In this document: piece after piece, positions 9,232 to 59,023 of the stretch
Position numbering within the stretch: the stretch's first letter is position 1
How the letters are laid out: the number at the start of each line of letters is the position of its first letter
Origin: Emiliania huxleyi CCMP1516
Lineage: Eukaryota
NCBI RefSeq assembly: GCF_000372725.1
Contig: NW_005201338.1
Span: 290,041 to 354,040 of the forward strand
DNA: 64,000 nt
Reading direction: 5' to 3'
The notes under the pieces: generated by a model
What the model saw: the letters and a program-made list of their open reading frames with translations, nothing else
What the model was told of the DNA's origin: nothing
Database searches by the model: none
Translations under genes and position numbers: made by a program

Positions 9232-12200
9232 ATGGAAGATCCTGAGCAAACGGAGCGCGTGACGACAGCAGCTATTGACGGCGATGTCGATGCACTGCGC
9301 TCGCTCGCTGAACAGTGCGGCAGCAAGGTGCTGATGGCAGCTTCGGCAGACGGCAGCACACCGGCACACGCCGCCGCTGCAAACGGCCGACTCGACGTGC
9401 TCCGCTTACTTGTTGAGCAGTGCGGCCCAGAGGTGTTGACGGCTGCGGCGGCGGACGGCAGCTCGCCAGCACACGCCGCCGCTGCGAACGGCCACGTCGG
9501 CGTGCTCCGCTTCCTCTGTGAGCAGTGCGGGCCAGAGCTGCTGACGATTGCGATGGCGGACGGTGTGACGCCCGCGTACGCCGCCGCCCTCGGCGGTTAC
9601 GTCGACGCGCTCCGCTTCCTCTCCGAGCAGTGCGGCAGCGAGGTGCTGACGGCCGCGAAAGCGGACGGCGGCATGCCAGCGCACGCCGCCCTTGGTGGCC
9701 ATGTCGACGCGCTCCGCTTCCTCGTTGAGCGGTATGGCAGCGAGTTGCTGACGGCTGCTGTTGCGGGCGGCAGCACGCCAGCTCACGCCGCCGCACTCAA
9801 CGGCCATGTCGACACGCTCCGCTTCCTCGCAGAGCAGTGCGGCAGCGAGGCGCTGAGCGCTGCGGACGTGGCTGGCTGGACCCCAGTGCAGACCGCCGCT
9901 CTCGGTGGCCATATTGAGGCGCTCCGCTATCTCGCCGATCAGTGCGGCCTTGAGCTACTAACGGCTGCGAGACCGAATGGCAGCACGCCAGCTCACACCG
10001 CCGCTTTTGCTGGCCACGCCGACGTGCTCCGCTTTCTCTCCGAGCAGTGCGGCAGTGAGGTGCTGACGGCTGCGAGGGCGGACAATTTGACGCCAGCTCA
10101 CGCCGCCGCTCGCAGAGGCAACACTGACGCGCTCCGCTATCTCTTCGAGCAGTGCGGGCCAGAGGTGCTGACGGCTGCGGATGCGGACAGTGTGACGCCA
10201 GCACACATCGCCGCTCTCGACGGCCATGTCGACACGCTCCGCTATCTCTTCGAGCAGTGCGGCAGCGAGGTACTGACGGCTGCGATCAAGGACGGGCGCA
10301 CGCCAGCTCACTTCGCCGCTGCGAACGGCCACGTCGACGCGCTCCGCTTCGTTGTGGAGGAGTGCGGCAGCGAGGTGCTGACGGCTGCGACGGCGGGTGG
10401 CAACATGCTCGCGAATGCCGCCGCTCTTGCCGGCCATGTCGACGTGCTCCGCTTCCTCTCCGAGCAGTGCGGCCCTGAGGTGCTTGTGGCAGCAAGTGCG
10501 AACGGCTTCAGGCCGGCGCACGACGCTGCGCAGGAGGGCCACGTCGACGCACTTCGCTTTATTGTCGAGCAGTGCGGCAGCGAGGTGCTGACGGTTGCCA
10601 GGGCGAATGGCAGCACACCGGCTCACGCCGCCGCTGCGAACGGCCATGTCGACGCGCTCCGCTATCTCGCCGAGCAATGCGGGCCAGAGCTGCTGACGGC
10701 TGCGAGGGCGGACAGTGCGACGCCAGCACACATCGCCGCTCTCGACGGCCATGTCGACGTGCTCCGCTTCCTCTCCGAGCAGTGCGGCAGCGAGGTACTG
10801 ACGGCTGCGATCAAGGACGGGCGCACGCCAGCACACTCCGCCGCTGCGAACGGCCACGTTGACGTGCTCCGCTTCCTTGTGGAGGAGTGCGGCAGCGAGG
10901 TGCTGACGGCTGCTGATGAGGGCGGTTGGACGCCCGCATACGCCGCCGCTCTCGAGGGCCATGTCGACACGCTCCGTTTCGTTGTGGAGCAGTGCGGCAG
11001 CGAGGTACTGACGGCTGCTGATGAGGACGGTTGGATGCCCGCGTACGCCGCCGCTCTCGGCGGCCATGTCGACACGCTCCGTTTCGTTGTGGAGCAGTGC
11101 GGCAGCGAGGTGCTGACGGCTGCGATCAAGGACGGGCTCACGCCAGCTCACTTCGCCGCTGCGAACGGCCACGTTGACGCGCTCCGCTTCGTTGTGGAGG
11201 AGTGCGGCAGCGAGGTGCTGACGGCTGCGACGGCGGGTGGCAACATGCTCGCGAATGCCGCCGCTCTTGCCGGCCATGTCGACGTGCTCCGCTTCCTCTC
11301 CGAGCAGTGCGGCCCTGAGGTGCTTGCGGCAGCAAGTGCGAACGGCTTCAGGCCGGCGCACGACGCTGCGCAGGAGGGCCACGTCGACGCACTTCGCTTT
11401 ATTGTCGAGCAGTGCGGCAGCGAGGTGCTGACGGTTGCCAGGGCGAATGGCAGCACACCGGCTCACGCCGCCGCTGCGAACGGCCATGTCGACGCGCTCC
11501 GCTATCTCGCCGAGCAATGCGGGCCAGAGCTGCTGATGGCTGCTGATGAGGACGGTTGGACGCCCGCATACGCCGCCGCTCTCGGCGGCCATGTCGACAC
11601 GCTCCGCTATCTCTTCGAGCAGTGCGGCGGAGAGGTGCTGACGGCTGCGATCAAGGACGGGCGCACGCCAGCACACTCCGCCGCTGCGAACGGCCACGTT
11701 GACGCGCTCCGCTTCCTTGTGGAGGAGTGCGGCAGCGAGGTGCTGACGGCTGCTGATGAGGACGGTTGGACGCCCGCATACGCCGCCGCTCGCAGAGGCC
11801 ATGTCGACACGCTCCGCTATCTCTTCGAGCAGTGCGGCAGCGAGGTGCTGACGGCTGCTGATGAGGACGGTTGGACGCCCGCATACGCCGCCGCTCGCAG
11901 AGGCCATGTCGACACGCTCCGCTATCTCTTCGAGCAGTGCGGCGGAGAGGTGCTGACGGCTGCGATCAAGGACGGGCGCACGCCAGTACACTCCGCCGCT
12001 GCGAACGGCCACGTTGACGCGCTCCGCTTCCTTGTGGAGGAGTGCGGCAGCGAGGTGCTGACGGCTGCTGATGAGGACGGTTGGACGCCCGCATACGCCG
12101 CCGCTGTCAATGGCCAGGTCGACGTGCTCCGCCTTCTCGCCGAGCAGTGCGGCAGCGAGGCGCTGACGGCTGCGAATGCGAACGGCTACACGCCAGCGCA

Positions 12201-15200
12201 CAGGGCCGCTGCGCATGGCCATGTCGACGTGCTTCGCTTCCTCGCCGAGCAGTGCGGCAGCGAGGTGCTGACGGCTGCGATCAAGGATGGCGACACGCCA
12301 GCGCACGCCGCCGCTGACAGTGGCCATGTCGACGTACTCCGCTTCCTCTCCGAGCAGTGCGGCAGCGAGGTGCTGACAGCTACGAACGCGGGTGGCTGGA
12401 CCCCGGTGCACAGAGCTGCTCTCGGTGGCCACGTCGACGCTCTCCGCTATCTCGCCGAGCAATGCGGGCCAGAGCTGCTGACGGCATCGGACGGCAGTAG
12501 TCCAGCGCGCATCGCCGCAGTAAGGGGCAAGGTTGACGCACTCCGCTTCATCGTCGACCTGTCAGCCCAGTCGATTCCTACCGTTCTTCTCGACGCGCTC
12601 AAGAGGAACTCTGAGCACGCTCCGCTCGCCCTCGCCTGGCAGTCCCTGCTCAGCAGCCAGAAGCCCTCATTCTTCTCCTCCCGACCCGACCCTGCAAAGA
12701 TCGAGGCTGCCCTCGCCGCCGCACGGGATGCAGGCGTTGCATCCAGCGAGCTTGACCGTGCAGCAGCTTTGCTACGTGACACAAAGCTGTTGCGCGCGCT
12801 CAACGGCCGCCCTGCCCCCAAGCTGCTGCTATCGACCATCGCGAGCAATGGCCCTGGCGCGAACAAGGCGGTTGTGACGCTGAGTGGCCTACTCGACCCG
12901 CAGAACATGCTGCTCAGTTGGGCGGCGCTAACGGCAGTCGCTGAGAGCCCTGATTTGCCATCTGACGTTCTCACGCCGCTTCTCTCGTGCTTGACGCGCG
13001 CCCGCGCTTACTGGTCGCCCGATGGATGGTCTGAGGACGCAATTGAGTGGGTTACGGCCGCTCTCGCGGCACTCGAAGCCAGCTTCCTCGTTCGCAGCGG
13101 CCCGTTTGAGAACTACCCGGACCTCATCCACGCCCGTCTCATCGGTCTGATGCAAACGACGACGCCCGAGCATCTGCGAGTTCGTGCCGCCTTCGTGCTG
13201 AGCCACGCATACACGCGAGGCTACCCCGCCGATGCGGCCAGCTTCGACGCCTCCGATGCTGCTGGTCTTCTCGCTCGCTCGGTGCGGATCAGTGCCGCTT
13301 GCTCGCCGCCCGCGGTGCTCGCGTCGGCCGCCGGCTTTGCACTGGTCGCCGCAGCCACGGCGGGCTTTGCTGCCGCGCAGCGTGCGCTGGCCAGCCTCGC
13401 TAGCGACAGCACGCTTGGCATTCTGCTTGGCGCGACGATCAGCGTGCCTGCCAACTGCGCCGTCCTGTGGGCGTCGCTCGACCCTGTGCAGCGGTGCATC
13501 GACTTTTACCCGCGCGCGATTGCGCAGCAGCTCGAGGCGGCGCTCGGCAGCGGCAAGGACCGCTGCATGCTCGGCGCCGACTTTTTCAACGCGACCGTCC
13601 ACCTCCCGCCGGACGGCGGCTTTTACCAGACCACGCTCGGGCAGCACATGGGCCGCTCGGGCTATAAGGCGCCGGGCTTCCGCTCGGCGTGCCGCATCGT
13701 GCACCCGCGCAGCGCGCGCACGGTGACGCTGCACGGGCGTCGCGTCCAGGGAGAGTGGCGCCTCGCAGAGAGCGGCGACGACGCCGAGTACAGCTTTGTC
13801 GAGGTCGCGCCGGCGCACTGCATGCTGTGCCGTGAGGCGGCGGAGGAGCTTACGTCCTTGCGTTGGCCAGCCGCTTTGGTTGCAATCGTACATGCCATCC
13901 TCAACGGCACCCAAGGCGGACTCTCCGCAGAGGTTGTGGGTGCCCTGCTATCATGCGCCGGACCAGCGGAGCTGCCTGAGCCTATACATTCCGGCGACTG
14001 GCTCTGCGATGCTGCAGCGCTCCTGTTTGCTGGCCTAAGTGAGCTCGAACACACTAAGGAGACTGCGGAGCTCGTCAAGGCGGCGCGCTGGGTCTGGGAG
14101 CACGCGGCCCAAAGCCGGCTGCTTCGCGACGGACACCCATGGCAGCCACTACTTTTGCAGAGCATGCAGCGCGCCGCCGACCGCATTGAGGAGCTTGAGG
14201 CTCGTGCGGCTAGGCATGACCAAGAGGATCTGCTGCAAATCGTGAGCGGCGCTGTGGCGGTGGCAGAGGTGGCGACAAAGCATTGCGCAGTCGGCGTCGT
14301 CGACTCGGCTCCCGCCCGCATCCTGAGTGAGCTTCGCAGCCTCGAGCGTACTTTGCAGAACGAAAAGTTCGAGCTGATGGTCTACGGCGTGTACAGCGTT
14401 GGCAAGAGCAGGCTGCTGCAGACAGGCTACCCGGGTCTGAAGAATATGCTGCCTGTCTCCTCTAAGGAGTGCACCGCGCACCTGATCAAAATTGACGTCG
14501 GCAGTGATGGCCAGCGCGGCGAAAGCGATGCCGAGCTACATTTCGACTGGCAGTCCGTTGTTAAAATGGACTCGACGCTGCGCGATTTGCTTCCAGACAA
14601 GGTTCGCCGCTTTCTTGAGGAGCCGCACGTCCGAGAGTTCATCGATGGCTTTCTGATGGAAGACGAGCAGCAATCGCCCCCAACGTTACCGCTTTCAGAG
14701 GAGGAGGTCAGCGCGTGGGCTCGCGTCGATGGCGGCAGCGATAGTACGAGCATCAAGGCCCTTGCTAGCGTGGTTGATCACATCGCGGTCAGCGTCACGG
14801 TAGACGCCGACTGCCCGCGGTACAACATCATCGACGCCCCTGGGCTTGGGGCCGACAAGAGCCGACGCGACATCGCAGAGCGCCACCTGCGCAAGTGTGA
14901 CGTGCCCATCGTCATCGCCTCCTTCATCGACCTCAGCCTCGAGCCGCTTCAAGAGGCGCTGCGGCAAATCAAGGCCAGCGGCCATCAGCCAATTATCGTC
15001 ATCACGAAGCTCGACGAGCAGTACACGCGGCTCGGTGAAGACCATCCCAGCCAAGACCTGTCCGCCCTTATGGAGGCAAGTATGGCGGACGCACGGCGGA
15101 TCTTCGTTCAGGCCGGTTTCCGAGAGTCAGATGTCCACTTCGTTTCCGCGTACTGGTTCGAGTTCTCGAAGGATCGGCAACGTGCTGCGCGAGTGCGCGC

Positions 15201-18117
15201 CGCGCTTGAGACTGCGGGTCTGCCGTCCGACGAGGACGAGTCGACTGCTCGCGAAACCCTGCGCCGCCTATCCGGGATCGACGCCTTTTGGGATGCCGTC
15301 GACGAGCTAGTCATGCGCGATGCGGCCAGACGACGTGCTGGGAGGGTTTGCGAAGAGCTGGCGCAGCACCTCTCCCAGCTGCTTGGCATGCTCCTCGACC
15401 AGGACGGCTTGCTGAGCGGAGTCAGGCCAAACGCGGATGATCCAGAGTGGCGTGCCGACGTGCAACGCACTTCCGTGGCAGCTAAGGGGACTCTCGATGC
15501 AGCGCTAGACGCGATGCAGTCCGAGTGCTCCGACGCAATCGCAGAGACTGCCACGCGGATGCGGAAGGGGCTGACGGAGCTGGTCCTCGAGCTTCAGAAG
15601 ATGTGTGCCGGGGGATCCACCATCGACCAGCTCTCAGCTCGCCTGCAGCAGCGCTTTGCCGAGCTGCAGCAGACGCTTGCCCCTTACCAAGGGTGGGAGA
15701 TGGCGGGAAATAAGATGCGAGACCATCTCGAGCGTGCAGGTGAGCAGCTGGCCGAGCTGCTTCGAAAGCACTTTCCCGGCTCCGTCCACTCGCTGCTGCT
15801 TTCGTCGTCGCAGCTGCAAACGCCTGCAATCACCGATGCGCCCTCGAGTATCACGACGCCCAACGTCACGCGGAATGTGGCGGGTGCAGTTGCAGGGGCT
15901 GTGCTCGAGATCGTCGCCCTCTGCGCGCTCCCAGTCATTGCAACAGCGATTACCGGCGGCGCCGTTGCGCCGCTCCTAGCCCCGGTGGTAAGGAGTGCAT
16001 TACCGAGTGCAGTGGCTGCTGGCATTCAAGTCTACCAGGCCGAGGCCGGACGCGACCTGCCTGCGGAGTGGGTGCGCGAGTGCGAGGAGGCAAAGAGCGG
16101 GTGGATCCGAGACTTTGAGCGCGGTCTTCGTCGCCAGCTGGAGGTCTGGAGGCGGCAGGTGAGCGCAGCTGTTGTCAGTCAACTCGATAGCTGGATCGAT
16201 GGCATTCAGGCAGCAGCCAGCCTGCCCCCTGATCAGCTCCAGCCTTCCCAGGCTGACATCCGTGCCGCCGGCGAGCAAGGACAGGTACTGCTGTCGGATG
16301 CTGTCGCGTTGCTGGATCGCCTCAGCGGTAATGTTGTCTCGGATGGTGCAGAGATCAACATTGTGCGCCTCGGTGCTCGCGTGCGACGGCTGAAAGCGAG
16401 TGCCAAACGATGGCTCGACATCGATCTGCAGCTTGCCGATCCCTCAGAGGAAGCGGCGCGTGAGCGACGGGAGGATACCCAAAGGCAAACCACAGACAGC
16501 TACGCCTTTCTTGCATCGGTCCTGACGACTGAGCTCCGGCGCCATGGCTCGGAGCTCGAGGCGACTCAGACGCTACGAGCGCCATCAAGCCGCCCGCAGC
16601 CCCCGCAGCCCCCGCAGCCCCCGCGTGGCGCTCCTCGTCCCACGGCTGCAGCGCAGGAGATCGCGCGGCACGCGCTCCTGGCTCGGCTGAGCGATGAGGT
16701 ATACTCTCGACACGACGCGGGTGAGGTGCTCTTCTTGAAGAGCGCCGATGACCCGAGTGTCGACGAGCAGGTGGAGGTGCTGCACTTCAGCTCTGCTGGC
16801 GGCGGCACCTGGAAGGTGCCGCAGTGGGCAGTCTTCCGTACCGCAGGCCGCGCTGACGGCGACTTTGTGGCTCTCGTCTTCAAAGGCACGGAGGCCCCGA
16901 CCGAATGGGTGGTGGACTTTGCGTGTGTGTCTCGCGAGGCCGGCGGCGGGCTGAAGCTCCACGCCGGCATCTCTGGCAACTTGCGATCGCACATCGCGGC
17001 TGTGGAGTCCGCGATCGCCCGCTCGACGACAGACGCCGGCGCTCTGCCGCTCTACTTCTCCGGCCACTCGCTCGGAGGCGCGTACGCCATGTGCGCCTTC
17101 TACATGGTTGCGCCGACTCTCTCGCAGCGGGTCGCCGGCGTTGTCGGATTTGGTGCCCCGCTCGTGACCGTCGCCGGAGGCCCGCCCGAGATCGTGCTGA
17201 CGGCTAAGCTGCGGTTCTTGACCTACGTGTCGGGCAACGACATCGTGCCACGCTCCCTGTTCAAGCCGAATGCTGAGAAGTTGCTCGCCTTTGCTCGCCG
17301 TTTGGGCAAGAGCCAGGCATTGTCTACCGTCTCCAACGCCATGCCGACATTTGACATGATTGGCCAGTTCCGCGCGCTGCCGGGAGCGGTCGAGCGACCC
17401 CCTTCCGAGCTGCTGCGGATTCGGCCAGATGCGCCGCTGACGTCGCACATCGACGACCACGCGTGCCGCGGCTATGCACGACTGCTTGATGAGTGCGCAC
17501 TCGAGCTGCTGCCGAGTGCTACGTCCACACCGATGGCACCGGCACCGTCACCGACGGAGGCGGCGGTGGTGGTGATGTCGGCGGCGGCAGCGGCGGCAGC
17601 GGCGGCAGCGGCAACAGCAGCGTTGGCGGAGACAGAGGCGCGGACGGCGGGGACGGCGACGGCGTCTACGTCTATCGAGGCTCCTTTCCCGACGGCGCAG
17701 CAGGAGCTGGCGCAGGCGCTCGAGGCGTCGGAAGGACGGTCGCAGGTGGCTGAAGATCGTGACCTGGCGCACGGCATCGAAGAGTCGCTTCGAACCGACG
17801 GCCCGTCCCCCTTCGCTTCGGCCGCCGCCGCCGTACAAGGCGAGGCGGGCTCAATGGGCTCCTCCATGTCAGTTTCAGCGGCCGAGTCAGCGTCGACGGT
17901 GCAAGCATCCCCGATGAACTCTCCTCGAGGGCGGGCAATGGTGGCGCTTCTCGAGGACGCTAAGCTCACCGCTTATGCGAGTGTGCTGCACGATGCCGGA
18001 TATTATGAGCTGACTGATCTCAGAGAGGCCGACGACGCAGACCTCGGCGAGCTCGGAGTGGGACTCAAGAAACCCGAGATCAAAAGATTGCGACGCTATC
18101 TCGAGAAACAAGTCTGA
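9232..18117 (+). CDS. Giant multidomain protein: ankyrin array - WWE-like - dynamin-like GTPase - hydrophobic hairpin - class-3 lipase - SAM
   Basis: Uninterrupted 2961-aa ORF; TPAH.AA..GH repeats; G1 GVYSVGKS (14386), G3 DAPG (14833), G4 TKLD (15004), FVSA; lipase FKGT, GHSLGG (17062), FGAP, NDIVP; C-terminal SAM-like YASVLHDAGYYELTDL...LGELGVGLKKPEIKRL. Confidence 0.9.
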   Translation: MEDPEQTERVTTAAIDGDVDALRSLAEQCGSKVLMAASADGSTPAHAAAANGRLDVLRLLVEQCGPEVLTAAAADGSSPAHAAAANGHVGVLRFLCEQCGPELLTIAMADGVTPAYAAALGGYVDALRFLSEQCGSEVLTAAKADGGMPAHAALGGHVDALRFLVERYGSELLTAAVAGGSTPAHAAALNGHVDTLRFLAEQCGSEALSAADVAGWTPVQTAALGGHIEALRYLADQCGLELLTAARPNGSTPAHTAAFAGHADVLRFLSEQCGSEVLTAARADNLTPAHAAARRGNTDALRYLFEQCGPEVLTAADADSVTPAHIAALDGHVDTLRYLFEQCGSEVLTAAIKDGRTPAHFAAANGHVDALRFVVEECGSEVLTAATAGGNMLANAAALAGHVDVLRFLSEQCGPEVLVAASANGFRPAHDAAQEGHVDALRFIVEQCGSEVLTVARANGSTPAHAAAANGHVDALRYLAEQCGPELLTAARADSATPAHIAALDGHVDVLRFLSEQCGSEVLTAAIKDGRTPAHSAAANGHVDVLRFLVEECGSEVLTAADEGGWTPAYAAALEGHVDTLRFVVEQCGSEVLTAADEDGWMPAYAAALGGHVDTLRFVVEQCGSEVLTAAIKDGLTPAHFAAANGHVDALRFVVEECGSEVLTAATAGGNMLANAAALAGHVDVLRFLSEQCGPEVLAAASANGFRPAHDAAQEGHVDALRFIVEQCGSEVLTVARANGSTPAHAAAANGHVDALRYLAEQCGPELLMAADEDGWTPAYAAALGGHVDTLRYLFEQCGGEVLTAAIKDGRTPAHSAAANGHVDALRFLVEECGSEVLTAADEDGWTPAYAAARRGHVDTLRYLFEQCGSEVLTAADEDGWTPAYAAARRGHVDTLRYLFEQCGGEVLTAAIKDGRTPVHSAAANGHVDALRFLVEECGSEVLTAADEDGWTPAYAAAVNGQVDVLRLLAEQCGSEALTAANANGYTPAHRAAAHGHVDVLRFLAEQCGSEVLTAAIKDGDTPAHAAADSGHVDVLRFLSEQCGSEVLTATNAGGWTPVHRAALGGHVDALRYLAEQCGPELLTASDGSSPARIAAVRGKVDALRFIVDLSAQSIPTVLLDALKRNSEHAPLALAWQSLLSSQKPSFFSSRPDPAKIEAALAAARDAGVASSELDRAAALLRDTKLLRALNGRPAPKLLLSTIASNGPGANKAVVTLSGLLDPQNMLLSWAALTAVAESPDLPSDVLTPLLSCLTRARAYWSPDGWSEDAIEWVTAALAALEASFLVRSGPFENYPDLIHARLIGLMQTTTPEHLRVRAAFVLSHAYTRGYPADAASFDASDAAGLLARSVRISAACSPPAVLASAAGFALVAAATAGFAAAQRALASLASDSTLGILLGATISVPANCAVLWASLDPVQRCIDFYPRAIAQQLEAALGSGKDRCMLGADFFNATVHLPPDGGFYQTTLGQHMGRSGYKAPGFRSACRIVHPRSARTVTLHGRRVQGEWRLAESGDDAEYSFVEVAPAHCMLCREAAEELTSLRWPAALVAIVHAILNGTQGGLSAEVVGALLSCAGPAELPEPIHSGDWLCDAAALLFAGLSELEHTKETAELVKAARWVWEHAAQSRLLRDGHPWQPLLLQSMQRAADRIEELEARAARHDQEDLLQIVSGAVAVAEVATKHCAVGVVDSAPARILSELRSLERTLQNEKFELMVYGVYSVGKSRLLQTGYPGLKNMLPVSSKECTAHLIKIDVGSDGQRGESDAELHFDWQSVVKMDSTLRDLLPDKVRRFLEEPHVREFIDGFLMEDEQQSPPTLPLSEEEVSAWARVDGGSDSTSIKALASVVDHIAVSVTVDADCPRYNIIDAPGLGADKSRRDIAERHLRKCDVPIVIASFIDLSLEPLQEALRQIKASGHQPIIVITKLDEQYTRLGEDHPSQDLSALMEASMADARRIFVQAGFRESDVHFVSAYWFEFSKDRQRAARVRAALETAGLPSDEDESTARETLRRLSGIDAFWDAVDELVMRDAARRRAGRVCEELAQHLSQLLGMLLDQDGLLSGVRPNADDPEWRADVQRTSVAAKGTLDAALDAMQSECSDAIAETATRMRKGLTELVLELQKMCAGGSTIDQLSARLQQRFAELQQTLAPYQGWEMAGNKMRDHLERAGEQLAELLRKHFPGSVHSLLLSSSQLQTPAITDAPSSITTPNVTRNVAGAVAGAVLEIVALCALPVIATAITGGAVAPLLAPVVRSALPSAVAAGIQVYQAEAGRDLPAEWVRECEEAKSGWIRDFERGLRRQLEVWRRQVSAAVVSQLDSWIDGIQAAASLPPDQLQPSQADIRAAGEQGQVLLSDAVALLDRLSGNVVSDGAEINIVRLGARVRRLKASAKRWLDIDLQLADPSEEAARERREDTQRQTTDSYAFLASVLTTELRRHGSELEATQTLRAPSSRPQPPQPPQPPRGAPRPTAAAQEIARHALLARLSDEVYSRHDAGEVLFLKSADDPSVDEQVEVLHFSSAGGGTWKVPQWAVFRTAGRADGDFVALVFKGTEAPTEWVVDFACVSREAGGGLKLHAGISGNLRSHIAAVESAIARSTTDAGALPLYFSGHSLGGAYAMCAFYMVAPTLSQRVAGVVGFGAPLVTVAGGPPEIVLTAKLRFLTYVSGNDIVPRSLFKPNAEKLLAFARRLGKSQALSTVSNAMPTFDMIGQFRALPGAVERPPSELLRIRPDAPLTSHIDDHACRGYARLLDECALELLPSATSTPMAPAPSPTEAAVVVMSAAAAAAAAAAATAALAETEARTAGTATASTSIEAPFPTAQQELAQALEASEGRSQVAEDRDLAHGIEESLRTDGPSPFASAAAAVQGEAGSMGSSMSVSAAESASTVQASPMNSPRGRAMVALLEDAKLTAYASVLHDAGYYELTDLREADDADLGELGVGLKKPEIKRLRRYLEKQV
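9256..12560 (+). repeat. 105-bp (35-aa) ankyrin tandem array, ~32 units including caps
   Basis: Units counted in the translation; units 11-14 recur as 19-22 at an 840-bp offset. Confidence 0.95.
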
Positions 18118-36266: not shown

Positions 36267-36744
36267 GGGGACCCCTAGGGTTCTGAGGGCCGGATTTTTT
36301 TAAGACCTTTTAAGAAACGAGGAGGTTTGGGGGCTTAACTTGCCATTTAAGAGATTGCAGGCACGGGGGGTCCCTCTTTTAAGACCGTTTAAGAAAATCG
36401 GCCTCGCCGGCATGCGTCGCTGGGTTCCGCGCCGTTTTCTCCAATACTGCCGTTATTAGGCACAAACCCGCCTCTGAAGACACATCTGTAAGTCTGGTGC
36501 ACTGGCAGGAGCCATACTCGCATAGGGGACGCGTGCTAGCTGACTGTAGCCAGCTCCCTGGCCTCCGGCGTCTACCGGGAGCCTCCCGGACCATCGACCT
36601 CGGGAGCTCTCCCGCACCGTTTAAGCGTTTAAGACCGTTTAAGGAATTGGCGGCCCAGCAGCTCTTAAAACTTGCCATGGCAAGTTTTAAGCCGTTTAAG
36701 CCGCAGGCGCTCCAGGGCCCACCCTTTTAAGCCTTGGGGTCCCC
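36267..36744. mobile_element. MITE with GGGGACCCC TIRs, TA flanks and internal TTAAG-rich subrepeats
   Basis: ta|ggggacccctagg ... ccttggggtcccc|ta. Confidence 0.65.
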
Positions 36745-36943: not shown

Positions 36944-37153
36944 GGCTGTTAGGCTGTCAGGTGCTGTCAGGTGATCTGTCGGGCTGTCGGGCACTGTCAG
37001 GCACTGTCAGGTGCCTCTGTCAGACCAGCTGTCAGGTACTGTCAGTGCTGTCGGGTGCTGTCGGGTGCGTGTCTGACATCAGAGGTGCTCTGTAGCTGTC
37101 GGGTGCTGTCGGAGCTGTCGGGTGTTGCTGTCAGACGCTGTCGGAGCTGTCAG
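36944..37153. repeat. Degenerate ~10-bp tandem (gtgctgtcag/gg)
   Basis: Directly visible. Confidence 0.8.
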
Positions 37154-37666: not shown

Positions 37667-38170
37667 CTGAGGGAGGGTGTAGAGGATGTAGAGTGTAGAG
37701 CGCTGTAGAGCTGTAGAGATGTAGAGCGCTCTGGAGCGCTGTAGAGCTGTAGATCTCTACATCCGGCGCGGGACGGACTGCCTGCGTTGTTGAGCGCATG
37801 TAGAGCGCATGTAGAGCGCGATTTACTTAGTGATTTCACTGTCAGAGGCTTTGCGTCACAAGAGTGCACACGAACTTGTCGANNNNNNNNNNNNNNNNNN
37901 NNNNNNNNNNNNNNNNNNNNNNNNNNNNNNNNNNNNNNNNNNNNNNNNNNNNNNNNNNNNNNNNNNNNNNNNNNNNNNNNNNGCATGTAGAGCGCATGTA
38001 GAGCGCGATTTAGTTAGTGATTTCACTGTGAATTCGCGGTCTACATCGCTCTACAACGCAGGCAGTCCGTCCCGCGCCGGACGTAGAGCTCTACAGCTCT
38101 ACAGCGCTCTACAGCTCTACAGCTCTACAGCGCTCTACATTCTACATCCTCTGCACCCTCCCTCAGTCAG
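37667..38170. mobile_element. Foldback MITE with 8-bp flanking direct repeat (hAT-like), spanning an N gap
   Basis: Long imperfect TIRs ctgagggagggtgtagaggatgtagag.../...ctacatcctctgcaccctccctcag; GCCCCCAC at 37659-37666 and 38171-38178. Confidence 0.75.
37883..37982. other. Assembly gap (100 N)
   Basis: N run; other gaps at 48825-48924 and 61970-62075. Confidence 1.
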
Positions 38171-38427
38171 GCCCCCACACCCCAGGATAATACTTTTTCT
38201 CCCAATACTGCAACAACACTCTCTCCCAATAATACTGCCGTTATTAGGCTCAAACCGCCTCTGAGAACATATATGTAAGTCTGGTGCACTGACTGGCCAT
38301 ACTCGCATACCGGCCTCCGGCGTCTACCGAACAAGTCGTGAGTACCGGGGTGTGAAGGGCAGGCGAGTCATGGCGCGCGCGCTGTGCAGCAACGCAGCAG
38401 CCGCAGAGCAGTGATCAGATACGGCAC

Positions 38428-55545: not shown

Positions 55546-55924
55546 ATGCTGTTCGTGGCGCTCCTGCACCTGGCGACGCCGCTCGAGCCACCACAAGTGC
55601 CGCGTCTCAACCTCTACCCGCCCCGCCGAGTTGCGCTGCTCGTGGAGCCCACACCATTCACGCACATCAGCGGCTACTCCAATCGCTTCAAGGAGATGCT
55701 CCGCTTCCTGGTCGCTGCTGGCGACGAGGTGCACAGGCTGGTGGTGCGCTGTCGCCCGACCACACCGAACCGCCTCCACCTCGCCTGGAATAGGTGACTG
55801 TGATCACGCCGGACGACACACCGGAGCGGCCGCGCTCTTTCCTCGGCGTACCGATCACCTACCTGCCCGGCTTCCGCCTTCTTTTCTACAAGCAGGCGAC
55901 ACTGCACTCGCGCCACCGCCGCTG

Positions 55925-55990
<66 letters not shown>

Positions 55991-58900
55991 TCCCTCTCCC
56001 TCACACCCTCACCCTCACCCTCGCCCTCGCCCCAGCCTTCAACCCTCCCCCTCCCCTCGTGTCCAGCGCACCGAACTGCTCCTGGAGGCGTGAGCAGACG
56101 CTCCTCACACCTCGTCAGGTCCAGCTCTCGCTCGACTGCCGCCGCGTCGCCCTCCGCGCCCTCCGCTCCTTCCGGCCAAGCCTCCTCCACGTCTCTGCCC
56201 TGTGAATAGTATAGCTGTGAACAGTACAGCTGTGAATAGGCCAAGCCTCCTCCACGTCTCTGCCTGTGAATAGTATAGCTGTGAACAGTACAGCTGTGAA
56301 TAGGCCAAGCCTCCTCCACGTCTCTGCCCCCGGCGTCCTCGCCCTGCCCGCCATCTTGTGCGCGCGCCTCCCGTCGCGCGCCTCTCTCTGTGTGAACGGC
56401 GACTCTTCACACACGCACCCGCACCCGCGAGTGCAGGTACTCTCGCCTCCTCTCCGTCCCTCTCGTCGTCTCGTACCACACACACCTCTCCGTCTACGCC
56501 GCGCGCTACGTCACCACCCCCGGCGCCGCCTCGCCTCGCCTCTGCTCTGCTCTGCTCTCCTCTCCTCTCCCCTGCTCTCCTCTGCTCTCCTCTGCTCTCC
56601 TCTCCTCTCCTCTCCTCTCCTCGCCTCTCCTCGCCTCGCCTCGCCTCTCCTCTCCTCTCCTCGCCTCGCCTCGCCTCGCCTCGCCTCGCCTCGCCTCGCC
56701 TCGCCTGTGTATGTTACCAAGGCCCGGACCCACAGGCTTGCGCTGGCTCGCGGTGAAGCTGGCAGACGCGCTGCTGCCCCGGCTGCTCAACTGCGCCGAC
56801 CTCACGCTCGCCACGAGCCCGCAGCTGCAGCAGCAGCTGCGCGCGCTCGGCTGCAGGCGCGTCGAGGGTGGGTTCGGGTACCGTGGGGTAGGGGAGGGTG
56901 GGTTCGGGTACCTTGGGGGGTAGGGGAGGCGCTCGGCTGCAGGCGCGTCGAGGTGTGGCGCAAGGGCGTCGACACGCTCACTTTCTCGCCCGCCTTCAAC
57001 GTCTCCAACGCCCACGCCCGGCACGCGCTGACGGGCGGGCAGCCGCACCGGCCGCCGCTGCTGTCGCTGGACTCGTGCCGCGTCTCCCGCCGCCGCCCTC
57101 CGAGAAATGGCCGAGATCGCGTAGGCCGCTGCTGCTGTACGTCGGGCGGCTCGTAAAAAAGAAATCCCGCACCTGGGCGATTTCTTTTTTAGGCCGCTGC
57201 TGCTGTACGTCGGGCGGCTCGGCGCGGAGAAGCGCGTCGAGCTGCTGCGGCCAGGCTGTCTCGGCTCTTTGGCCAGCGAAGGTGGTGACTCGGTCACAGG
57301 CGCGTCGAGCTGCTGCGGGCGGTGCTGGACGCGAGGCCGGACGCGACTTTGGCGATAGCAGAACTGTGAATAGTGCAGCTGTGAAGAGTGCAGCTGTGAA
57401 TAGGCCGGACGCGACTTTGGCGATCGTTGGCGGGGGGCCAGCGGAGGCGAGTTCACACCGTCCTATTCACAGCTGCACTCTTCACCGCTGTACTGTTCAC
57501 AGCTCTGCTCTCACACCGTCCTATTCACAGCTGCACTCTTCACAGCTGTACTGTTCACAGCTCTGCTCTCACACCGTCCTATTCACAGCTGCACTCTTCA
57601 CCGCTGTACTGTTCACAGCTCTGCTCTCACACCGTCCTATTCACAGCTGCACTCTTCACCGCTGTACTGTTCACAGCTCTGCTCTCACACCGTCCCTCAC
57701 CAACGGTCAACACCTCCCTCTGACTGGTCTGCCCGGAGGCGAGTTTGCGCCGCGAGTTTGCCGGTGCGGCGGCGGTGTTTGCCGGCGTTCTGCGGGGGCG
57801 AGGACCTCTCGTAAAAAAGAAATCCCCGCGCATCGGCGATTTCACTTTTACTAGGCGTTCTGCAGGGCGAGGACCTCTCGCGCGCGTACGCGGCGGCGGA
57901 CGTCTTTGTGAGTGCCCGCCGAGTCGCCGGGCGACAGCCGCGTGACACGATTGCGGTGAGGCGTCCTGGTGGTTGGGCGCAGGTGATGCCCTCCGACTCG
58001 GAGACGCTGGGTTTCGTCGTGCTCGAGGCGATGGCTTCGGGCGTGCCCGCCGTCGCCGCCGACGCGGGCGGGCTGAGATTAGCCGAGATTGAGCCGAGAT
58101 TAGCCGAGATTAGCCGAGGTGCGCCGAGATGCGCCGAGATTAGCCGCCGACGCATGGCGGGCTGTCTGTTCTGGTGGCGGCCGTGACAAAAAAGGAGACG
58201 CGGGCCGCGCACACACGCAAGCTGTGGGCAGGCGGGCTGTCGAGCCTGGTGGCGGACGGCGAGACGGGGCTGCTGTTCACGCTCAGCTGTGAAGAGTACA
58301 GCTGTGAACAGTACAGCTGTGAATAGGCGAGACGGGGCTGCTCTTCACGCCGAACTGTGAAGAGTACAGCTGTGAACAGTACAGCGGTGAATAGGCGAGA
58401 CGGGGCTGCTTTTCACGCCGAGCTGTGAAGAGTACAGCTGTGAACAGTACAGCTGTGAATAGGCGAGACGGGTCTGCTCTTCACGCCGGGCGACGGGGCC
58501 GACCTGGCGGCGAAGGTTGGGCGGCTGGCCGGGGAGCCTAGAAGCTGAACCCCGTCTTCCCTGTACTCCCACCAGCGCTCGAGAGGAGCACGTCTTCCGC
58601 CGCATTCGGCCGCATTCGGCTGTGTGTGAGAGGCCTCTGATCGGCTACTACGATCTCGACTTCACAAGTCCACTTCACAAATCTGCCCCCGTGTCCCGCA
58701 GATCGACGATCCGCGGCTGCGGTGGGAGATGGGCCGAGCGGCGTGCGCCGAGGCGCGGCAGCGCGGCGTGAGACCCTCCGTCGCGAGGAGACGGGCTCCG
58801 CGTGGCTTGACCGCCACCCGGCACTTGCCACCAGGCGAGGCGGTGGAGCTGGGAGGCGGCCACGTCGGTGCTGCGCAACGAGCAGTACGCGCTGGCGGAG

Positions 58901-59023
58901 AGCCGCTTCCGGGAGCGGCAGCGGTGGGTCGAGGCGAAGCTGGAGGCGTGGCGGAGTCCGCTGACGCGACTGCGGAAGCGCCGCCCCCACCGGACGCGAC
59001 CGAGCGTGGCCGCGTTTGCGTGA
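55546..59023 (+). CDS. SQD2: Sulfoquinovosyltransferase-like GT4 glycosyltransferase, many introns
   Basis: RRVALLVEPTPFTHISGYSNRF, SYHTHL, VWRKGVD, LLYVGRLGAEK, VMPSDSETLGFVVLEAMASGVP, WEAATSVLRNEQY. Confidence 0.85.
55924..56032. repeat. (ACCCTC)n telomere-variant hexamer inside an intron
   Basis: Directly visible. Confidence 0.9.
56527..56706. repeat. (CTCGC/CTCTC/CTCTG)n pentamer tract inside an intron
   Basis: Directly visible. Confidence 0.9.
57454..57695 (-). repeat. 4 x 58-bp tandem of the CTGTGAA element in reverse orientation
   Basis: Units start at 57454, 57512, 57570 and 57628. Confidence 0.9.

Follow-up and report, generated by a model that had tools for sequence, protein, structure and literature searches.

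Given that one short filler sequence recurs within a single gene of Emiliania huxleyi CCMP1516, in both orientations, the locus raises the question as to what kind of insert this is and how it came to be there. The preliminary description of the window (the entire 64-kb stretch of DNA that was analysed, to which all coordinates refer) proposed a tiny introner-like or RNA-templated insert that hops locally. Our analysis revealed that the sense units are small spliceosomal introns, each composed of a 21–28-nt copy of the downstream exon and a dispersed 37–48-nt filler ending AG. This layout likely marks a recently active way of making new introns, possibly RNA-templated.

Filler A and its host gene

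The fillers lie in a SQD2-like gene (sulfoquinovosyltransferase, GT4; 55546–59023, + strand), whose spliced model has 16 introns and encodes a 447-aa product with no internal stops, 287 aligned positions being identical to P0012 over residues 1–422. Pfam assigned the product to GT1/GT4, several homologues carry the name sulfoquinovosyltransferase, and P0002 (E. huxleyi CCMP1516 EMIHUDRAFT_223825) is 100% identical to exon 1. Most of the 16 introns were set by RNA joints and pieces; introns 56523–56735, 57232–57299 and 58259–58462 were set by sequence, frame and homology. Thirteen introns have GC donors and three have GT donors, which matches the GC majority of 56–65% reported for E. huxleyi donors (PMC4028052). 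Units read as coding lead to faulty public gene models, e.g., P0002, which is faulty because it translates through the units and ends at 234 aa, as against 447 aa in the spliced model. P0002 also translates the unit at 57232–57299 in successive frames, which implies at least two tandem copies where the window has one. In contrast to the 16-intron SQD2-like gene, much of the remaining window consists of long uninterrupted ORFs.

Other repeats were observed elsewhere in the window. An intronless ORF of 2961 aa (9232–18117) has 30.6 copies of a 105-nt repeat that may be ankyrin-like. At 37677–38146, inverted arrays of TGTAGAGC-like units flank an N gap inside longer inverted arms, an arrangement suggestive of a foldback or MITE-type element. 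The stretch near 36440–36570 turns up again near 38190–38330, and a degenerate array of 10-nt GCTGTCAGGT/GCTGTCGGGT units lies at 36953–37151.

All ten copies of the filler, hereafter filler A, were found where the preliminary description had placed them, at four sites and in both orientations. On the + strand the end GTGAATAG occurs at 56232, 56296, 57396, 58319, 58387 and 58455, besides internal units, and on the − strand at four places within 57463–57644; as had been claimed, G follows at every + and − copy. The pattern GCKGTGAANAG has 26 matches in the 64-kb window, all inside 56214–58462, as compared with 0.33 expected and a maximum of 2 in 100 shuffles. Tandem Repeats Finder reported a period of 64 at 56174–56328, of 68 at 58258–58488 and of 58 at 57453–57695 (4.2 copies). 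It also found the inner 15-nt period that had been noticed, and the palindromes proposed for the filler are CAGCTG.

Site 1 (56175–56303, + strand) is a GC-AG intron of two tandem units (65 and 64 nt), each comprising a 25–26-nt copy of the downstream exon and filler A (56200–56239 and 56264–56303). Site 2 (57336–57403, + strand) is a 68-nt GC-AG intron with a 21-nt exon copy and 47 nt of filler A. Site 3 (57463–57694, − strand) consists of four 58-nt antisense units, each a 10-nt duplication starting with G plus 48 nt of filler A, the array being nested inside intron 57447–57738. Site 4 (58259–58462, + strand) is a GC-AG intron of three 68-nt units, each with a 24–26-nt exon copy and filler A; metagenome contig L007 has one unit at this site, possibly through assembly collapse. 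Tandem amplification together with a local flank had been suggested; what was taken for that flank proved to be a second copy of the exon lying downstream. Junctions between filler and flank are crossed by contigs from four independent DNA runs, and L007 carries site 4 with 198/200 downstream bases identical to the window. The repeats are therefore not an artefact of assembly, and the filler observation is confirmed as real.

Each filler-A unit begins with a copy of the first 10–28 nt of its target, from a G onward, and continues with 37–48 nt of filler ending AATAG; the copied part duplicates the sequence directly downstream. The units of sites 1, 2 and 4 coincide exactly with an intron, from GC donor to AG acceptor. 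Measurements were made on nine sites with a clear duplication (n = 9), i.e., the four window sites and five found elsewhere; L001, with no clear duplication, and L010, with an inverted filler, were kept out of this sample. The 3' junction is AATAG/G at 9/9 sites, and the combination of a fixed 3' end with target site duplications (TSDs) of variable length (10–28 nt), a feature of non-LTR retroposition, was likewise found at all nine, for a search pattern that itself demanded GTGAATAG and favoured that end. These duplications look longer than typical L1 ones. The periodic part of filler A measures 39–42 nt at 8/9 sites, and duplication plus filler amount to 58–68 nt at eight of the nine, the exception being L002 with 91 nt. 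Duplication length and filler length are anticorrelated (rho −0.79, p = 0.012, n = 9), which, with a near-constant total, is as a minimum intron size would predict. Overlap at the 5' junction has a mean of 2.3 nt, as compared with 1.1 nt under a null of blunt joining (p = 0.026, n = 9, mismatches allowed); it is zero at 3/9 sites, and the longest unexpanded fillers (47 and 48 nt) have none. Two of the nine sites with the AATAG end are antisense, the intronic site 3 and L002, and there the AG is not a splice acceptor. No donor-exon sequence beyond the AG was found at any of the nine sites, and sites 2 and 3 alone share a private non-periodic 5' extension of the filler.

The filler had been described as having neither terminal inverted repeats (TIRs) nor coding capacity, and our results agree: the longest TIR measured 1–3 nt in 10/10 copies examined, and Rfam gave no match over the SQD2-like gene at E ≤ 1. 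A conserved fold was not supported for the filler-A introns (z −0.77, −2.63, −1.37 and −1.12). Poly(A) tails are absent from filler-A units, the filler itself being a 15-nt repeat. Similarity across filler-A introns is limited to the 3' 37–48 nt, the 5' part being a site-specific exon copy, and the end-to-end similarity of introners is thus lacking, unless the 5' exon copy is counted as a TSD.

RNA contigs of X10, X11 and X12 lack 129 nt at site 1, where 27 letters fit either side. At site 2, X10 RNA lacks 68 nt, and X11 and X12 RNA, in which the next intron is also missing, join 57356 to 57734 with exon letters only between. The intron hosting site 3 is skipped by RNA of X11 and X12. Precise removal from mRNA, a feature of introners, was thus observed for sites 1 and 2 and for the host intron of site 3, with the 447-aa frame restored. 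Removal of the site 4 intron restores frame and homology, and its joint is absent among the 15 of 26 RNA joints listed. The RNA and DNA runs are different samples, so some of the RNA skips could be empty alleles.

Other fillers, variation among runs and further loci

A unit with a 19–29-nt exon copy forms the end of eight of the 16 SQD2-like introns; three of these have filler A, two have a hairpin filler B and three have other fillers. The filler C unit (GGGTAGGG-rich; 56843–56928, + strand) consists of a 25-nt exon copy and 61 nt ending AG, and one RNA contig passes from 56735–56842 straight to 56929–57049. The hairpin of filler B is A/T-rich, has arms of 13 nt and ends 1 base before the acceptor G, and the two copies of this filler both meet the exon copy at CTCG. 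Unit B1 (57125–57192, + strand; 29-nt exon copy plus 39 nt, fold z −2.88) lies at the acceptor of intron 57051–57124, and unit B2 (57785–57854, + strand; about 26-nt exon copy plus 43 nt) is skipped in 4/4 RNA runs. The filler D unit (57232–57299, + strand) has a 19–21-nt exon copy and about 48 nt of filler. An older-looking unit with a degenerate ~27-nt exon copy plus filler (58157–58231, + strand) forms the 3' end of intron 58068–58231, which is skipped by RNA of X10, X11 and X13. The same G has been struck twice, by different fillers, at 57051/57125 and at 58068/58157. A strict scan for this layout in the rest of the window yielded one candidate, probably a coding repeat, and 0–1 in five shuffles. 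The SQD2-like gene is a hot target of several unrelated fillers and not a local donor.

Depth at filler C (56843–56928) and at a GCCGAGAT repeat (58075–58146) was several hundred times that of the flanks in 4/4 DNA runs, so these two families are probably far larger genome-wide than filler A.

Units vary among runs in tandem copy number. The 68-nt B1 unit (57125–57192) is absent from the DNA of X1 and X6, with the neighbouring intron kept, and present in X3 and X4. Its absence could be a precise loss instead of a recent gain in the other runs; long direct repeats ease both expansion and precise loss. The unit at 57232–57299 is found head-to-tail, with contigs that go back 68 nt in X4 and loose ends in X1 and X3. 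For the filler-A sites, no empty allele was found in four DNA runs, among the eight joints listed.

The summed contig depth of X1 reached about 80,000 at 57232–57299 and 6,100 at 57463–57694, with unique flanks at 50–140. In the other three runs the same two units showed a few-fold to 11-fold excess, depth not being equal to copy number. The X1 readings may reflect a very large expansion, amplified circular forms or an artefact of the library.

A scan of metagenome contigs returned 12 loci, 10 of them distinct, with L009, L011, the duplicates L003 and L005, and L007 (window site 4) left out of the locus count. Five new sites have a duplication, filler A and the AATAG/G junction (L002/L003, L004, L006, L008 and L012), and L008 holds three tandem units. 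The insert is thus introner-like, as had been proposed, with the same layout at five further loci, one of them antisense; it is not confined to this locus as a minisatellite, each of the five unrelated loci having its own site-specific duplication. We infer that these five contigs belong to E. huxleyi, based on GC content, shared repeats and the occurrence of the L008 flank in runs that hold the SQD2-like gene; this flank was observed in X10 and X11. The L002 insert lies antisense in a HECT-domain exon (three HECT protein matches), where the duplicated AG/GT could splice out 91 nt; P0121 is unbroken across the insert, which is compatible with splicing or an empty allele alike.

Local hopping, by contrast, did not hold up. 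Counted over the final 37 nt, mutual differences among the four window sites are 2–5 bases, while site 4 is identical to unrelated L012, and L002 and L006 differ by 1; spread is therefore not mainly local.

Several loci depart from the regular layout. L010 has an intact 24–28-nt duplication around a partly inverted filler, and L001/L005 lack a clear duplication; at L001 the frame is preserved by an intron of 48 or 69 nt. The repeat runs on past AATAG with T at L001/L005, at L010 and at one X10 loose end. At L009 (1201–1290), a closely similar 15-mer is simply repeated in tandem, with no duplication layout, on a contig of GC 0.55 that is probably from another organism; L011, with a single motif match on a contig of GC 0.43, also looks like another organism. 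Pattern matches in viral contigs (0, 1 and 4) and in prokaryote genomes (3) were taken as chance, being isolated and without a full filler or AATAG/G end.

Loose ends in runs X4 and X10, at 57363/57404 and 56261/56303, point to two more loci with the flank duplicated around filler A; at the X10 loose end, the repeat continues TA after AATAG. Related fillers ending GCTGTGAACAG, then always G, were observed at L002 1–110 and 1020–1098, L004 786–857 and L010 947–1357. A TTCACAC hairpin is common among them, and two have clear 11–21-nt duplications. This suggests a larger superfamily with several insertions per gene.

Possible origins of the units

A fixed 3' end, TSDs of variable length and 5' variation are the signature of target-primed reverse transcription. 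The units combine a fixed 3' end, long variable duplications, slightly variable 5' ends, some microhomology, one inversion and both orientations, as this signature would lead one to expect (compare PMC2912911 and PMC2831318). We hypothesize, tentatively and short of calling it probable, that a reverse transcriptase copied an RNA ending ...AATAG into a pair of nicks staggered by about 25 nt; an excised intron or the tail of a retroelement would be the likely template. A nick next to G would prime copying from the RNA 3' end, and copying would end at about 40–48 nt and join the second nick, often via a few matching bases. Fill-in would then duplicate the target, the starting G becoming part of a GC, GT or GA donor and the filler supplying the acceptor. 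In exons, only inserts with clean splicing and a length of at least about 60 nt would survive, and copy number could afterwards rise, or fall to zero, as the long direct repeats slip or exchange unequally.

At least five unrelated fillers share this one layout in the SQD2-like gene, which is consistent with a machinery that serves many templates in trans, and since all of them stop at AG, the simplest template would be an RNA ending at a 3' splice site, i.e., an excised intron. An RNA template is further supported by the two antisense copies (site 3 and L002), which also end AATAG/G, by the partly inverted filler inside the intact L010 duplication, and by the different fillers that hit one G at 57051/57125 and at 58068/58157. 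The AG/G of sense exonic copies can be explained by splicing selection alone, so just the two antisense cases inform on the template end. Against an RNA template stand the lack of poly(A) and the three sites that run past AATAG. If whole introns were copied, pieces of the donor duplication would be expected more often than the 6–7 nt seen at sites 2 and 3. A stall of reverse transcriptase at the branch point was considered as the source of the ~40-nt length; it would leave about 25 nt from donor to branch, which was thought unlikely on reasoning.

The main rival, possible although on the whole unlikely, is DNA-templated repair, in which a stalled fork, or a break whose complementary overhangs are long, switches to an intron elsewhere, copies about 40 nt and returns, leaving a duplication plus filler, the AG/G end and ~65-nt size being set by splicing selection. 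Such repair would account for the microhomology at the 5' junction, both orientations, the many fillers, the inverted filler in L010 and the gene-specific hot spot; breaks have been tied to tandem duplications (PMC8355091, PMC5730883), and direct repeats were reported at 43% of gained Daphnia introns (PMC3443670). It leaves unexplained the exact AATAG/G stop of the two antisense copies and the missing donor flanks at 9/9 sites. The microhomology signal is modest and does not separate an RNA from a DNA template. Tails of LINEs can be composed of short repeats, and a narrower form of the RNA hypothesis, with one dedicated LINE or SINE parent whose tandem-repeat tail was 5'-truncated, would suit the 15-nt periodic filler with its fixed end and variable duplication, as well as the non-periodic 5' extension shared by sites 2 and 3. 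We consider it improbable: no copy among the nine sites exceeds 48 nt with unique sequence, the periodic part stays at 39–42 nt in 8/9, and a parent of its own would be required for hairpin filler B, for filler C and for filler D.

A non-autonomous cut-and-paste DNA transposon, i.e., a MITE-type introner, comes to mind since TIR elements form the majority of classified introners (PMC12130899), filler B carries a terminal hairpin of 13 nt, and Novosib-1_EmiHux of Repbase stands beside one listed E. huxleyi introner family (PMC12130899). For filler A this reading is largely refuted by TIRs of at most 3 nt and by varying 5' ends, and the duplications (10–29 nt, or 10–28 nt for filler A) are variable, not short and fixed at 3–9 bp (PMC9860276); we regard a transposon of this kind as very unlikely. 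Hardly credible as the origin is an ordinary local minisatellite born by slippage in the SQD2-like gene. The tandem copies and copy-number variation are real and L009 has a similar 15-mer array without the layout, but filler A stands with its own site-specific duplication at five unrelated loci, one of them identical over 37 nt. Slippage is refuted as the origin, yet likely caused the tandem amplification.

Returning to an RNA template, we also entertain a broader and doubtful version, introns from introns, in which the RNA 3' end of any excised intron could be copied by reverse transcription into nicks staggered by ~25 nt. The donor would come from the duplicated exon and the new intron would be the next template, a chain reaction requiring no transposon ends.

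Relation to known introners and implications

The units are introner-like in effect and are neither MITE-type introners nor an ordinary minisatellite. For E. huxleyi CCMP1516, Table S6 of PMC9860276 (2022) lists five introner families with 653 elements, mean lengths of 70, 70, 37, 37 and 37 nt and TSDs given as "?" or N. Dataset file 8 of PMC12130899 (2025) lists three E. huxleyi families with TSDs of 2–4 bp and a mechanism of "Unknown" or LTR. One 5-member E. huxleyi family of about 69 nt in PMC12130899, annotated "10bp terminal direct repeats, co-opt 5' carry 3'", comes from the same species and follows the same logic as the filler-A units, with donor co-opted and acceptor carried. The listed 37-nt families have 54–57% GC as compared with about 43% for the 37 nt of filler A (hand count). 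The filler-A sequence was not found in the supplements of PMC9860276 and PMC12130899, where families can be compared by description only, nor was "Emiliania" found in the main texts of these two papers.

Like the MITE-type introners of Micromonas, Aureococcus and Symbiodinium, filler-A units carry one splice site and obtain the other from the TSD, and L002 co-opts both, as in Florenciella (PMC9860276). Unlike these introners, filler A lacks TIRs and has a variable 10–29-nt duplication that accounts for about 40% of the intron. Introns gained by tandem duplication or break repair (PMC3443670) likewise come with flanking direct repeats of the exon and an unchanged coding sequence; here, however, a multi-copy filler, not a duplicated AGGT, is the usual source of the acceptor, and the fillers form a dispersed family, not a one-off patch. 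Tandem duplication would duplicate both splice sites with no foreign insert, whereas a filler was found at all sites and both splice sites are duplicated only at L002. Retrocopies made by LINEs in trans (PMC2912911, PMC2831318) are also short, with target duplications, 5' truncation, inversion and microhomology; the units differ in lacking poly(A) and in that the product is a functional intron. Ascomycete families of fungal introner-like elements have no TSD (PMC9860276), in contrast to the long duplications here.

Direct repeats of 4–30 bp near splice sites have been reported generally (PMC11782384). We found no prior account of the duplication-plus-filler anatomy in the literature searched, save for a single table entry that mentions 10-bp direct repeats. 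No mechanism has been assigned to about 72% of introner families, and most E. huxleyi families are entered as "Unknown" (PMC12130899).

Each insertion preserves the target, the junction and the template end, which makes RNA- versus DNA-templated intron birth testable in a cultured, resequenced species. Given that the donor starts with the G of the exon copy, the process is a candidate cause of the 56–65% GC donors of E. huxleyi (PMC4028052). The formation of introns from introns, if true, would help to explain this GC-donor majority, and introns would flicker between zero and many copies.
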